Positions 26,955 to 29,936 of a DNA stretch of 64,000 nt are shown here, one piece after another. Under the pieces are notes generated by a model. It was not told the origin of the DNA, made no database searches, and saw only the letters and a program-made list of their open reading frames with translations. Location of the stretch: NCBI GenBank assembly GCA_034670305.1, contig JAXMNT010000011.1, forward strand, positions 1 through 64,000. The letters are read 5' to 3'. The position numbers and the translations under genes are program-made. This stretch comes from Deltaproteobacteria bacterium. Its GTDB lineage: Bacteria > Myxococcota_A > Polyangia > Polyangiales > Houyiibacteriaceae. Each line of letters begins with the position of its first letter. The first letter of the stretch is position 1.

Positions 26955-27070
26955 TGCGACGGAACTCCCCCTCCCTCCTCTGAACTCCTCCGGAACTCTC
27001 CCGAAATTGAACGGGCGCTGGCGAGCGACGCGATGGACGGCAGGGGTGACCACGCGTGCGGCTGCCGGGT
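26955..27070 (+). repeat. Dispersed AACTC-rich repeat, copy B
   Basis: Matches copy A; flanked by (GCCCGT)n at 26878-26913 and (GCAGAG)n at 27092-27211. Confidence 0.85.
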
Positions 27071-27091
27071 TTTCGGGGTCGGCGGCAGAAT

Positions 27092-27211
27092 GCAGAGGCA
27101 GAGGCAGCGGCAGCGGCAGCGGCAGAGTCAGAGTCAGAGGCAGAGGCAGAGGCAGAGGCAGAGGCAGAGGCAGAGGCAGAGTCAGAGTCAGAGGCAGCTA
27201 CCGCTACAGCC
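27092..27211. repeat. Hexamer array (GCAGAG/TCAGAG/GCAGCG)n
   Basis: Visible periodic tract. Confidence 0.9.
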
Positions 27212-27306
27212 CATGCTCTCCTTCGGAGTCGCACGGTCTCAGCCTCTTCCTTCGGAACTCGGCTCCTTCATCCTTCGGATTCGGAGTGGCTTGGGTGGGC
27301 TTGCTG

Positions 27307-27438
27307 GCTCGGCGGGATTTCGATGGTGGCGGAGTGCTCACCCGCGTCAAGGGTGCCTTCGGCCCCAGCCTTCGGAAGGCTGGCTGCGCCCTTGACCCGG
27401 GCTCCGCTCTCCACCGGGGGCGCTTCGCGCCGCCGAGC
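27307..27438. promoter_or_regulatory. Conserved multi-stem element upstream of four-helix-bundle gene 1
   Basis: GTCAAGGGTGC/GCGCCCTTGAC core stem, nested outer stems and TTC-loop hairpins; same topology as 29267-29421. Confidence 0.7.
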
Positions 27439-27469
27439 AATGTCGCTCTTCGGGGCATTGGAGGCTCTC

Positions 27470-27857
27470 ATGATTGTTCTCGAATCTTCTTTGGTTCTCG
27501 TCGAGTCGTTGGTGGGTGTGCTGGCGGATGTTTCTCGCCGGGACCGTTCGTTGGGGGATCAGATGCGGCGGGCAGCTCAGTCCGTCGTGCTGAACTGCGC
27601 GGAAGCGAAGCACGCCCGGGGGAAGCGGAGCGTCGATCGGTTCGAGTCGACACGGTGCAGCCTCGCGAAGCGAGCCAGCCGTGTCACCGGGACGGCGTTT
27701 GGGGGCTGTGCCCCCAAGAAGCATCGCGTACGGGGAAGCGAGCGAGCTGAAGGCGGCGCTTCGATTGGTTCGGGTGTTTGGGTACGCGGAGGTCAGCGAG
27801 GAGTTGGTGCAGCGCTGCGATGAGGTCTGCGCGATGCTGTATCGGCTCGGTCGTTGA
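27470..27857 (+). pseudogene. Four-helix-bundle protein (23S-IVP/TIGR02436-like) interrupted by a 76-bp insertion
   Basis: LGDQMRRAAQSVVLNCAE...DRF, then in another frame [14 protein letters not shown]...[10 protein letters not shown]; removing 27644-27719 restores a 103-aa ORF colinear with 29458-29769; GGAGG RBS. Confidence 0.8.
27644..27719. mobile_element. 76-bp two-hairpin micro-insertion (REP/MITE-like)
   Basis: GACACGG..CTCGC-GAA-GCGAG..CCGTGTC and TTGGGGGC-TGT-GCCCCCAA; absent from the paralog; boundaries uncertain by about 3 nt. Confidence 0.65.
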
Positions 27858-27892
27858 GAGCGAGGGCCGGCGGCGCGCCTGACGCCGTCGCC

Positions 27893-28060
27893 GGCTCGGC
27901 TTCGGCTTCGGCGTCGGCTTCGGCGTCGGCGTCGGCTTCGGCGTCGGCGTCGGCTTCGGCTTCGGCTGCGTCGGCTTCGGCGTCGGCTTCGGCTTCGGCT
28001 TTGGCTTCGGCTTCGGCCTCGACGTCGGCCTCGGCGTCGGCCGAGGGCGAGGGCGAGGCT
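27893..28060. repeat. Hexamer array (TCGGCT/TCGGCG)n
   Basis: Visible, downstream of four-helix-bundle gene 1. Confidence 0.9.
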
Positions 28061-28148
28061 TCCGGCGTCGCCACCGGCGACGCCATCGCGGCCGGCGCAG
28101 CCGGGCGCGCTTGACGTCTGTGACGGCAGGCGGCAGGGATCGATCACC

Positions 28149-29063
28149 ATGTTGCTCGACTCTCTGCCGAAGTCCGTGTCCATCTACGAAGTGTCGCCGC
28201 GCGACGGTCTCCAGAACGAGGCGGGGCAGGTGGCGACGCATGCGAAGGTGCGGCTCATCGAGGCGCTCGCGGATGCGGGGCTCAAGCGCATCGAGGCGAC
28301 GAGTTTCGTCTCGCCCAAGTGGGTGCCGCAGATGGCGGACGGCGACCAGGTTTGCCAGATGCTCGACCGCACCGAAGGGGTGACGTACTCGGCGCTCGTG
28401 CCGAACGCGCGCGGGCTCGAGCGGGCCATCGAGGCGGGCGTGGACGAGGTCGCGGTGTTCTTGAGCGCGAGCGAGACGCACAACCGCAAGAACGTGAACA
28501 AGACGATCGCGGAGACGCTGAAGGCGTTCGAGCCGGTGGTCGCGCCGGCGTCGAAGACGATGCCGGTGCGTGGGTACGTGTCGACGATGTGGGGCTGTCC
28601 GTACGAGGGCGACGTGGACCCGAAGCGCGGGCTCGAGATCGCGCAGACGTTGCTCGCGGCGGGCTGCTACCAGGTGAGCCTGGGCGACACGATCGGCGTG
28701 GGCACGCCGCTGCAGACGCGACGCATCCTGGAGCTGTTCTTGAAAGAGATCCCGGCGGAGAAGATCGCACTGCACCTGCACGACACGCGGGGCACGGCGC
28801 TGGCGAACGTGCTGGTCGGACTCGACATGGGCATCACGACCTACGACGCGTCGGTGGCCGGACTCGGCGGCTGTCCGTACGCGCCGGGCGCGGCGGGCAA
28901 CCTGGCGACGGAGGACCTCGTGTACACGCTCGACGGCATGGGCATCGAGACGGGGGTGGACTTGGCGAAGCTGTGGCAGGCGGGGCAGGTGGCGGAGGCG
29001 GTGTGCGGGCGGGAGTTGCCGGGCAAGGTGCACCGGGCGGGCGTGCGAAGTTTGGCGGGGTAG
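28149..29063 (+). CDS. hmgL: Hydroxymethylglutaryl-CoA lyase
   Basis: [51 protein letters not shown]. Confidence 0.95.
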
Positions 29064-29093
29064 GGCATCGGGGTAGGGCATCGCGTGCCCGAT

Positions 29094-29228
29094 CCTGAAG
29101 CCGAAGCTGAAGCCGAATCCGAAGCCGAAGCCGAAGCCGACGCCGAAGCCGAAGCCGACGCCGAAGCCGACGCCGAATCCGAAGCCGGATCCGAATCCGA
29201 ATCCGAAGCCGACGCCGAAGCCGACGCC
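29094..29228. repeat. Hexamer array (GCCGAA/GCCGAC/TCCGAA)n
   Basis: Visible; inverted relative to 27893-28060. Confidence 0.9.
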
Positions 29229-29266
29229 ACCGCAGCTGTCGCACCTCTTCTCGTGGAGGTTGGCTG

Positions 29267-29421
29267 GCCCGATGGATGGTCCAGCGTAGCGGTCGGCGGG
29301 GCGGCGCCTCAAGGAGGCCTTCGGCCCGGCGCCTTCGCGCCGCTTCGCTGGCGCGCTTCGCGCTGGCTCGTCCTTGACCCGCCACCCCGCCGACCACTGG
29401 GGGCGCTGCGCGCCCTCGGGC
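29267..29421. promoter_or_regulatory. Conserved multi-stem element upstream of four-helix-bundle gene 2
   Basis: TCAAGGA/TCCTTGA core stem; GGTCGGCGGGGCGGCG/CGCCACCCCGCCGACC stem (15/16); GCCCGA/TCGGGC outer stem; TTC/TGC-loop hairpins. Confidence 0.7.
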
Positions 29422-29457
29422 GAGTTCACGCTCGGCGTACACAACGGTAGGTTCTCG

Positions 29458-29769
29458 ATGCTGGTATTCGACAAGTCGCTTCTTCTTCTCTCGCTTCTGG
29501 TGAGCGAGGTTCTGCCTCGCATTCGCGAGGCTTCACTGAAGTCGCAGCTGCGGCGCGCTGCGCAGGCAGTTCCCTTGCTCATTGCGGAGTCTCGGAGTGC
29601 GCGGGGGGCGAGGAACCCTGACGGGTTCTCGCGCGCACTTGGCGAAGCCCGTGAAGTGAAGGCGGCTTTGCAGGTCGCGGGGGTGATGGGGTACGTGCAA
29701 GCTGGCGAGGACATGTACGACTTGGCGGACCACGTCTGCGCGATGCTGTTCAAGCTGAGTCGAGGGTAG
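29458..29769 (+). CDS. Four-helix-bundle protein (23S-IVP/TIGR02436-like), 103 aa
   Basis: [44 protein letters not shown]. Confidence 0.85.
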
Positions 29770-29936
29770 CCTGGGGCGGGGCGGCACTTGTGGCCGCTCC
29801 GCTTGGACCTTTCGCACGGGCACGGGGCACACGGCCTCATCCTCTCCTTCGGATCGGATTCGGCCGACTCCTCGGATCGCTTGCGGCGTCTTGGGTGGGG
29901 AGACTTTTTGGGCGGTCGGGGTAATGTTTAGGCGCG

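Follow-up and report, generated by a model that had tools for sequence, protein, structure and literature searches.

About forty small cassettes in a myxobacterial genome combine a short tandem array with a conserved folded element and a gene for a small four-helix bundle

Few small proteins of unassigned function are as common as those of the PF05635 family, which are met in intervening sequences (IVS) of ribosomal RNA, in DGRs, where they serve as Avd, and in scattered cassettes. A published account places the DGR accessory protein Avd in this same family (PMC10053308). Mobile elements of the IS1111 type offer a second point of reference, with a transposase-bound seekRNA that is encoded in the 3' non-coding region and ranges in size from 82 to 154 nt (PMC11187229). 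Papers naming the PF05635 family, in the portions covered, describe the protein as uncharacterised or Avd-like and mention no structured element upstream; likewise, no such element was found for the family in the literature searched, which comprised titles and the starts of abstracts.

The window, that is the whole 64,000-nt stretch of DNA analysed here, contains two look-alike units, and their resemblance is confirmed to be real and not due to chance. All the sequence features listed for them in the original prediction were found in place; that inventory, however, had missed the flanking tandem arrays, the size of the family and the break in the gene of the first unit. Copy 1 (all features lie on the forward strand) is preceded by a tandem array of (GGCAGN)n hexamers at 27085-27198, a type read as common to the upstream regions of subfamily A, and by a spacer (27199-27302), conserved in subfamilies A and C, that contains a G-rich run (CTTGGGTGGG) as well as three mini-hairpins of the form TCC-TTC-GGA; TCCTTCGGA is located at 27219, 27248 and 27271 and has 178 occurrences genome-wide. 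The structured element itself, a member of subfamily A, spans 27303-27443 and matches the models with 125.8 bits (R1) and 122.2 bits (R2). From sequence and alignment, its P1 stem is formed by GCTCGGCGG (27307-27315) and CCGCCGAGC (27430-27438), and P2 runs from 27325 on one side to 27415 on the other. The core, P3, consists of TCAAGGG (27347-27353) and CCCTTGA (27389-27395) with the tip hairpins in between, and P4 is GCGC-TTC-GCGC (27420-27430), after which GGAGG (27460-27464) and an ATG (27470) follow.

The PF05635 gene of copy 1 (27470-27857) is broken, with its N-terminal part at 27470-27646 and its C-terminal part, in another frame, extending to a stop at 27855-27857. An 80-nt dispersed repeat, with 114 BLAST matches in the genome at E <= 1e-4, lies inside it at 27647-27726, and because of this insert the PF05635 match is split into two sub-threshold halves that do not share a frame, one of 27.7 bits over profile positions 5-61 and one of 21.2 bits over positions 63-105; the gene reads through to an aberrant product of 117 aa. 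Excision of the 27643-27722 stretch was considered and rejected: the metagenome contigs at the locus are short and a mixture of paralogues, and their one clean joint, 27643 to 27722 (three contigs in X1, one in X5), fits paralogues lacking the 80-nt insert. Downstream of the gene is a second array, (TCGGCN)n at 27880-28040, of the reverse-complement type of the array that precedes copy 2 at 29089-29228; 29100-29228 matches 28041-27910 on the opposite strand with 84.8% identity.

This latter array, (GCCGAN)n, is of the type common to subfamily B, to which the structured element of copy 2 (29264-29425; three tip hairpins; 103.7 bits with R1 and 93.9 bits with R2) also belongs. Here P1 pairs GCCCGATGG (29267-29275) with CCCTCGGGC (29413-29421), the P3 core pairs TCAAGGA (29309-29315) with TCCTTGA (29371-29377), and P4 reads GCGC-TGC-GCGC. 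The four-helix-bundle gene of copy 2 is intact (29458-29769, ATG at 29458, 103 aa) and scores 42.5 bits against PF05635, above the gathering cut-off of 33.8 that is passed by 39 of the 48 matches in the genome. Its product aligns to PDB entry 2GSC over residues 13-86 (E = 1.7e-5). None of five proteins searched against the PADLOC defence-system library gave a match.

Using nhmmer, 44 copies of the element, both window units included, were detected in the 7.9-Mb myxobacterial MAG from which the window comes, and 36 of these 44 are followed directly, on the same strand, by a PF05635 gene of the 23S-IVS/Avd type; these fall into three subfamilies, named A, B and C. A covariance model recovers 38 copies in this MAG and further copies in other genomes. 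Of 43 elements in ten other genomes, 42 are followed on the same strand by a PF05635 gene and 42 lie no more than 300 nt downstream of a tandem array; on account of these two links the unit is taken to be array, element and gene, with or without a second array. The source MAG has about forty such small cassettes, each made up of a short tandem array, a spacer of about 40-100 nt, a conserved folded element of 140-165 nt forming a three-way junction and a small four-helix-bundle gene of 103-104 aa, often with a second array. A conserved and covarying nucleic-acid element, a putative partner, is thereby defined for one large branch of PF05635, with a covariance model and about 100 examples. Array type tracks element subfamily in the source MAG. 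That hexamer microsatellites are so dense in these myxobacteria may be due in part to the association of the cassettes with arrays.

The modules are dispersed and intergenic, lying between protein genes with housekeeping neighbours such as hmgL. By the gene calls of a crude GC3 method, 26 of 36 modules have a co-oriented and 10 a divergent upstream neighbour, and 17 of 38 have a co-oriented and 21 a convergent neighbour downstream. Since these orientations are mixed, the modules cannot all depend on read-through, and the 10 modules with a divergent upstream gene need a promoter of their own. No promoter was recognised upstream of P1, and a terminator-like T run was absent between P1 and the start codon in the module sequences inspected.

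Both the gene and the element are under selection. The gene is intact in 33 of 36 cases with dN/dS of 0.06-0.13, indicating strong purifying selection, and such a set of intact paralogues must be expressed regularly. The proposal that the cassettes are expressed only when single-stranded is therefore a poor fit. Within subfamilies, p-distances between elements are 0.07-0.10 as compared to dS of 0.48-0.69, so that synonymous sites change 5-7 times faster than the element does.

The fold comprises the outer stem P1, a long P2, the TCAAGG/CCTTGA core, tip mini-hairpins and P4, and it is supported by covariation. Among 53 distinct copies from outside the source MAG, in an alignment fitted to the covariance model, which favours structure, 92.1% of cells were paired; shuffled alignments gave 65.6%, with none of 500 reaching the observed value, and sliding the partners gave 30-51%. 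In the same copies double changes occur in all seven P1 pairs and covariation extends to P3a and P4; the P2 sequences of subfamilies A, B and C differ but still pair, and double changes are seen within C. The claim of a repeated module with true covariation is borne out by these figures. The inverted core is conserved, the terminal part is variable with one to three hairpins, and internal loops measure 2-3 nt. Compared with shuffled sequences, the top strand folded as RNA gave z = -2.42 (copy 1) and -3.63 (copy 2), and the bottom strand folded as DNA gave z = -4.91 and -5.66. The folded element is absent from the RNA catalogue searched: no Rfam 15 family reached its gathering score anywhere in the window, and at E <= 10 over 27000-29900 nothing fell in the copy 1 element; the only match touching an element is a chance-level lncRNA (15.3 bits, E = 9.7, minus strand 29388-29441) that overlaps the 3' end of the copy 2 element.

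Loop sequences would favour the bottom strand as DNA. The hairpins are overwhelmingly triloops with the sequence U-N-C when taken as RNA; U-N-C is not known as a stable RNA loop, and its complement C(GNA)G is a classic stable DNA mini-hairpin. On the top strand T-N-C accounts for 43 of 87 triloops in the source MAG and 53 of 66 in other genomes, mostly closed by C-G, and G-N-A for none and two, respectively; when pooled, 96 of 153 triloops have the C(GNA)G-type reading on the bottom strand versus 2 GNA on top, which extends to the whole family what had been suggested for the GNA-type bottom-strand loops. Additionally, TTGACG, TTGAGG or TTTACG followed 15-19 nt on by NANNNT is present on the bottom strand of 30 of 30 copies in the source MAG and 42 of 51 in other genomes (72 of 81), as against 0 of 30 and 0 of 51 by the same test on the top strand, and the spacers cluster at 16-18 despite differing P2 sequences.

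These features form the case for a promoter on single-stranded DNA, which we consider distinctly unlikely. The single-stranded bottom (template) strand would fold such that P3 and P2 present a duplex -35 and a partly unpaired -10-like hexamer, and RNA polymerase would start near the base of P2 and transcribe into the gene, as in Frpo or plasmid single-strand origins. The DNA folds of the bottom strand (z of about -4.9 and -5.7) and the failure to see an ordinary rightward promoter agree with it, as do the mismatches of the source MAG (A-C 27 versus G-T 4), which on the bottom strand are tolerated G-T. The originally predicted -35/-10 pair is present as a sequence pattern; its -10, however, is weak, mostly CACNNT and beginning with T in subfamily B alone, and in double-stranded DNA the pair would fire away from the gene. 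The regular expression implied by the 33 intact paralogues also speaks against this reading, and so does the G092 homologue described below, which sits where RNA is made. To our knowledge, hairpin promoters on single-stranded DNA have so far been found only in conjugative and rolling-circle plasmids and in phages. If such a promoter did operate here, Avd-like genes would be switched on, or the second strand of the cassette primed, by single-strandedness of the locus. The same hexamers and spacing could also represent an ordinary double-stranded promoter that fires leftward and lies in a palindromic region by chance, but this would explain neither the covariation of P1, P2 and P4 nor the fixed link to a downstream gene, and in 26 of 36 modules its transcript would do no more than enter the upstream gene's end in antisense direction; we regard it as highly improbable.

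The mismatches do not settle on one strand. Single (1x1) mismatches number 4 G-T, 27 A-C and 35 others in the source MAG and 24, 18 and 77 in other genomes, which pools to 28, 45 and 112 with no preference for G-U as in typical RNAs; no strand bias emerges from the wobble orientation. In other genomes top-strand G-T at least equals A-C, and a top-strand T-G pair in P2 (GTGC/GCGC) is kept in most lineages, with A-T instead in the G057 lineage, both of which go against the single-stranded promoter. The non-Watson-Crick pairs of P1 in other genomes (G-T 10, A-C 8) likewise do not favour G-U. A model-fitted wobble total (G-T 47, A-C 15) was set aside because most of its G-T pairs are in the badly aligned P4. 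The free-energy comparison of strands is ambiguous: in the source MAG the bottom strand is more stable in 19 of 30 copies as RNA and 28 of 30 as DNA, and in other genomes the top strand is more stable as RNA in 38 of 52, with neither strand favoured as DNA (30 versus 22).

The inserted character of the unit bears on another possibility. In a relative (G001), the orthologous junction between the upstream gene and hmgL is about 80 nt as compared to 1342 nt in the source MAG, and no module was seen within 330 nt on either side of hmgL in five relatives. The empty site at hmgL expected of an inserted unit is thus present, and the view that the module behaves as one is supported. Terminal repeats or target duplications are undefinable because arrays flank the units, and no recombinase was found linked to the modules; the source MAG has 11 genes for Y1 transposases (PF01797). 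The element may be a DNA-level site, a hairpin or cruciform for a recombinase, an HUH enzyme or the priming machinery, with a logic like that of integron attC, IS200/IS605 ends or rolling-circle single-strand origins, which would explain the insertion and spread of the cassette. Structure more conserved than sequence, a conserved inverted core with variable terminal hairpins, DNA-type triloops, the empty site, the Y1-transposase genes and convergent downstream neighbours (21 of 38) are in keeping with it, and so are the roughly equal G-T and A-C counts, which would follow if both strands, or a cruciform, were relevant.

Orientation relative to GC skew points the same way in one genome only. 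In the source MAG 30 of 38 modules (all flanking DNA), or 28 of 35 with strand-balanced genic skew, share an orientation, against 50.6% of 3047 called genes; there is no such bias in other genomes (18 versus 20 of 38 modules, with shorter flanks and after exclusion of two opposite-strand double-hit loci and of three second hits, two of them weak and one in tandem). Because it is absent from those 38 modules, the replication-strand bias is taken as unexplained and not as evidence. In the source MAG it makes the bottom strand usually C-rich (28 of 35) and so, if the rule of a G-rich leading strand holds, the leading-strand template, little exposed at forks, which is a further point against the single-stranded promoter. 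As for the DNA-level site, the copies are old (dS 0.5-0.7) and under purifying selection, unlike recent transposition, and together with the undefinable ends, the lack of a linked recombinase and the absence by eye of the attC core GTTRRRY this leaves it unlikely.

A homologue of the element outside the cassettes was detected in genome G092 (14 hits), with the same P1/P2/P3 layout and the core blocks GGGCGCGTCAAGGC and GCCTTGACCCGCCC shared with distant module copies. It lies on the sense strand, overlaps the end of an IS110/IS1111-family DEDD transposase gene and continues just downstream, and the right end of this IS110-family element borders on a 24-nt tandem repeat. The homologue hints at an RNA module shared by guide-RNA transposons and cassettes, and could mean that the element is a guide-type RNA akin to seekRNA or bridge RNA that directs the cassette into tandem arrays. 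Array flanks, and array type following subfamily in the source MAG, are consistent with this, and shared 8-mers between flanks are more often direct than inverted, as array insertion predicts, by 17 against 10 of 27 pairs in other genomes. However, no DEDD transposase (PF01548) was matched in G000, G013 or G045 despite their 38, 7 and 10 elements, so a transposase acting in trans was rejected. Moreover, elements matched their own arrays no better than unrelated ones (longest common substring 7.9/7.6 versus 7.5/7.6 nt, median rank 0.73; low power for guides of 4-7 nt), and the internal loops are only 2-3 nt. A guide function is accordingly improbable.

The explanation we prefer, tentatively and at somewhat under an even chance, is that the element is a cis RNA of the cassette, acting on the gene's own strand. 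Within a myxobacterial branch of IVS-type four-helix-bundle cassettes it may be the conserved nucleic-acid component that acts in cis; it would be co-transcribed with the gene as a 5' leader that folds into P1-P4, and the folded RNA could be a binding or processing site, either controlling the messenger or forming a particle with the encoded protein. We infer that the folded molecule is RNA and the encoded protein its partner. This reading is preferred because position and strand are fixed (36 of 44; 42 of 43) with no T run before the start codon, because the base-pairing is real (covariation in P1, P3a and P4, with P2 keeping its pairing across subfamilies), and because element and gene are both under selection; top-strand signs (the conserved T-G pair and the more stable top RNA in 38 of 52), the homologue in an RNA-coding context and the kinship of PF05635 with Avd are further reasons. 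Counted against it are the missing promoter upstream of P1, the lack of a G-U preference, the U-N-C triloops, the lack of an Rfam match, the stability of the bottom strand as DNA (28 of 30 in the source MAG) and the promoter-like hexamers on that strand.

Among known systems, integron attC sites differ in their core (by eye, TCAAGG/CCTTGAC and not RYYYAAC/GTTRRRY) and in being arranged in cassette arrays, whereas the modules are dispersed. A type III toxin-antitoxin layout of array, hairpin and small protein was considered and set aside, the 6-nt units being too short compared with known antitoxin RNAs. With Frpo-type promoters the modules share a long imperfect fold and -35/-10-like hexamers 16-18 nt apart on one strand, placed so that transcription would run into the gene, although the -10 is weak and the likeness is one of sequence pattern only; unlike those promoters, the elements are chromosomal, intergenic, present in about 40 copies and tied to one gene family. 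Nor do they lie in a plasmid leading region with its regular single-strandedness, being at chromosomal sites by housekeeping genes with a mostly C-rich bottom strand.

The G092 homologue is similar to seekRNA and bridge RNA in lying on the sense strand of a 3' non-coding region and, at about 130 nt, falls within the published 82-154 nt (PMC11187229); the modules differ in that they have no transposase and their element is upstream of a four-helix-bundle gene, a place in such a non-coding region being found only in G092. Avd belongs to the same superfamily as the module proteins (PMC10053308). It is a small four-helix bundle and has a structured RNA to work with. The modules, however, lack an adjacent reverse transcriptase and no template/variable repeat pair was seen; three reverse transcriptase genes are present in the source MAG, and even the closest, on contig C67, is separated from a module by about 5 kb; as none adjoins a module a DGR link was rejected.

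Finally, the ORF-bearing IVS of 23S rRNA in Leptospira, Coxiella and others differ from the modules, which are not in rRNA, whose copies are under purifying selection and whose three-way-junction element closes on itself upstream and does not enclose the gene. The 23S gene of the source MAG (3013 nt against a 2925-position model) has no large insert and so no IVS, the flanks of both window copies are not complementary to each other, and 17 of 27 flank pairs in other genomes are more direct. The other 10 are more inverted, like IVS arms; of 40 modules in the source MAG, 26 have flanks that are more direct and 10 flanks that are more inverted, 4 are tied, and both counts stay below 5 in 7. In both systems a short inserted unit has a small PF05635 gene as its sole ORF and is bracketed by short-period tandem repeats, and its behaviour is that of a selfish insert, as indicated for the modules by the empty site in a relative.

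The original observation, a structured element repeated ahead of two paralogous genes, is confirmed, and the family behind it is much larger than first reported: the element is a conserved cis element of an array-flanked cassette family around an Avd-like four-helix-bundle gene. The source genome, G000, is a 7.9-Mb myxobacterial MAG in 105 contigs, of which the window is C11 (1-64000, + strand), and the locus is present in DNA runs of a marine plastic metagenome but in no RNA run. On reading the sequence, all the features originally listed for the two units were found in place. In copy 1, on the + strand, the outer stem P1 pairs GCTCGGCGG (27307-27315) with CCGCCGAGC (27430-27438), the long middle stem P2 runs from GGTGG at 27325 to CCACC at 27415, the core P3 pairs TCAAGGG (27347-27353) with CCCTTGA (27389-27395), and the tip consists of mini-hairpins; the P4 hairpin, GCGC-TTC-GCGC at 27420-27430, adjoins the 3' strand of P1 and is followed by GGAGG and the gene start, ATG at 27470. 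Copy 2, also on the + strand, has the same layout (P1, 29267-29275 with 29413-29421; P3, 29309-29315 with 29371-29377; ATG at 29458), with 76% column identity between the two aligned copies.

The ORFs 3' of both elements are PF05635 genes, intact in copy 2 (103 aa) and broken into two frames in copy 1 by an 80-nt insert (27647-27726), which is a dispersed repeat with 114 BLAST matches in G000. This repeat is hairpin-rich and MITE/REP-like, it occurs in tandem in places (e.g. on contig C70), and it or similar inserts break other elements as well (e.g. C10:57103-57364). The genome also carries eleven paralogous Y1-transposase (PF01797) genes with open frames of about 235-250 aa, one example being C11:64206-64496, just past the window end; these enzymes may mobilise the hairpin repeats.

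The repeated module proposed originally extends far beyond the pair, with 44 nhmmer element matches in G000 and 48 PF05635 matches, 39 of them above the Pfam cut-off. A same-strand PF05635 match lies directly downstream of 36 of the 44 elements, the remaining eight being truncated or gene-less remnants. Conversely, an element is missing from 12 of the 48 PF05635 matches; this set includes four at contig ends as well as the four top-scoring matches of the genome. The opening codons of the gene distinguish three subfamilies, A, B and C, copy 1 being of type A and copy 2 of type B, and 33 of the 36 module genes are intact, with a length of 103-104 aa. Among 11 A, 10 B and 8 C copies, with broken, truncated and insert-bearing copies excluded, dS within subfamilies is 0.48, 0.69 and 0.53 and dN/dS is 0.13, 0.06 and 0.09, while the elements diverge by only 0.07-0.10 per site. 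Given this high dS, low dN/dS and low element divergence, the copies are old and purifying selection acts on both gene and element. By eye, variation in the otherwise near-identical paralogous proteins is concentrated at residues about 79-88, between the last two predicted helices.

With R2, a covariance model rebuilt after distant copies were added, the element was detected in 10 of the 40 further genomes searched within the same family (at most 7 copies each), in 7 of 39 others sampled from the order (top counts 14, 13 and 10) and in one of 39 others in a phylum sample, which included 6 genomes of the same order; that one is G092, discussed below. G000, with 38 copies by covariance model, has by far the highest count among the genomes searched. 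A survey of 20-kb stretches around 43 element matches in 10 other genomes revealed a PF05635-like gene after the element in 42, and in 42 a tandem array (period 6-26) whose end lies no more than 300 nt upstream, usually at 35-50 nt. An array was also present 250-1300 nt downstream in 31 of the 43, and arrays cover 16.4% of the sequence near modules versus 0.88% of the rest of the stretches. Of 27 cases in which the two flanks were compared, 17 have more 8-mers in common in direct orientation and 10 have more in inverted orientation.

In G000 the upstream hexamer array differs by subfamily, being (GGCAGN)n in A, (GCCGAN)n in B and (CCGCTT)n in C, and in A and C it is followed by a spacer with TCC-TTC-GGA mini-hairpins. 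Genome-wide there are 1697 arrays (2.59% of the genome; period 6 in 1254), of which only 80 lie near an element, whereas in the other genomes arrays are concentrated at modules. The TCC-TTC-GGA motif TCCTTCGGA has 178 copies in G000, with window positions 27219, 27248, 27271, 29845 and 12434, and it also occurs downstream of copy 2, before an ordinary gene. The gene hmgL lies between units 1 and 2, and the arrays flanking it, (TCGGCN)n at 27880-28040 and (GCCGAN)n at 29089-29228, are mutual reverse complements (84.8% over 132 nt); as RNA or single-stranded DNA they could pair across the whole of hmgL.

The empty site sought around hmgL is found in the relative G001, which has a module-free junction: there the orthologue of the upstream gene stops about 80 nt short of hmgL, versus a gap of 1342 nt in G000 that contains arrays and module 1. 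In G004, G012, G001, G011 and G007 the 330 nt flanking hmgL on each side are free of modules, and a conserved promoter-like TTGAC box of hmgL lies 3' of the insertion. According to gene calls made crudely from GC3, the neighbour upstream is co-oriented for 26 modules and divergent for 10, and the one downstream is co-oriented for 17 and convergent for 21; from these orientations, modules tend towards gene ends and read-through cannot serve all of them. Of the 38 modules of G000 with sufficient flanking sequence, 30 are coded on the locally G-rich strand, and strand-balanced genic skew puts 28 of 35 there (binomial p about 5e-4), compared with only 50.6% of 3047 called genes; in other genomes, with shorter flanks, this bias is absent (18 vs 20 among 38 modules), and it is not counted as evidence here.

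The fold of the element is real. Pairing had been claimed to survive sequence change, and double substitutions in P1 and P2 bear this out: between subfamilies, one P1 pair changes from C-G to T-A and another from G-C to A-T, P2 pairing is kept in A, B and C despite different sequences, and several P2 pairs show compensatory changes inside subfamily C. A first covariance model, R1, built from 32 copies, annotated P1, P3, P3a, P3c, P4 and the top of P2. Across 53 distinct copies from other genomes, in an alignment that was fitted to the covariance model and is therefore biased towards structure, 92.1% of cells pair versus 65.6% in shuffles (0 of 500 as high) and 30-51% with slid partners, and 19 of 25 pairs show double changes. 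No Rfam family matched at its gathering score; at E <= 10 the sole match touching an element was a chance-level lncRNA hit, antisense to the 3' end of the copy 2 element.

The original prediction was that the bottom strand, when single-stranded, may fold into a promoter driving the gene, and its sequence cues hold family-wide. Triloops account for 87 of 97 hairpins in own copies and 66 of 86 elsewhere, and most have a C-G closing pair; on top they read T-N-C in 43 of the 87 and 53 of the 66, and G-N-A in 0 and 2, so that the bottom strand carries C(GNA)G, a classic stable DNA mini-hairpin. The bottom strand also has TTGACG, TTGAGG or TTTACG, followed after 15-19 nt (mostly 16-18) by an NANNNT hexamer such as CACCAT, TACGCT, CACGCT or CACCCT, in all 30 own copies and in 42 of the 51 others, whereas the rightward test on the top strand gave 0 of 81. 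As sequence cues, loops and hexamers favour the bottom strand, and the proposed geometry is correct in that a folded bottom strand would send transcription towards and into the gene. As duplex DNA, the same hexamers would point away from the gene, as a plain leftward promoter would require, a reading we consider very improbable.

Helix mismatches of the 1x1 type number 4 G-T, 27 A-C and 35 other in own copies and 24, 18 and 77 in other genomes; P1 in other genomes has 10 G-T and 8 A-C, a union-of-both-strands count in G000 gives 59 and 57, and P2 has a T-G pair on the top strand that most lineages keep and one has as A-T. On these counts and this pair, wobble pairs favour neither strand, which is unusual for RNA. 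A site acting at the DNA level comes second in our ranking and is unlikely. The mismatch counts, the conserved T-G pair and the contradictory free energies of the two strands are against a folded bottom strand or neutral; we rate the single-strand promoter, whose loops and hexamers hold family-wide, slightly below the DNA site.

An RNA role on the strand of the gene, as a leader or as a particle with the encoded protein, is tentatively rated most likely because of the position of the element, selection, the lack of any T run resembling a terminator ahead of the gene, and the element's homologue in an IS110-family unit. The 14 element matches in G092 are not modules: each starts within the final codons of a 376-aa ORF and continues downstream of it. 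This ORF has PF01548 and PF02371 domains and encodes an IS110/IS1111-family DEDD transposase. The element therefore does occur without a PF05635 gene. This version has a 9-12-bp P1 and an 8-bp P2 helix, lacks P4, and has the same core blocks, GGGCGCGTCAAGGC and GCCTTGACCCGCCC, as distant module copies; it lies inside a repeated unit that ends about 65 nt beyond, beside a 24-nt tandem repeat. The G092 loci (L140-L149, e.g. L140:396-1700) represent an IS110/IS1111-family insertion sequence, with 14 element and 12 transposase matches, which has the homologue in its 3' non-coding region; the 24-nt repeat adjoining its right end varies in copy number.

Such a homologue raises the prospect of a guide-type RNA in the modules themselves. 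No DEDD transposase was found in G000, G013 or G045, and own arrays were matched no better than foreign ones in a low-power test, so we regard a guide role there as doubtful, less probable than the single-strand promoter and more so than the leftward one. The G092 homologue is the one observation that points to RNA made from the top strand. In IS1111-type elements the non-coding stretch that follows the transposase gene yields a seekRNA of 82-154 nt, which the transposase binds and which target choice requires (PMC11187229); the G092 element has a like location, downstream of a transposase gene.
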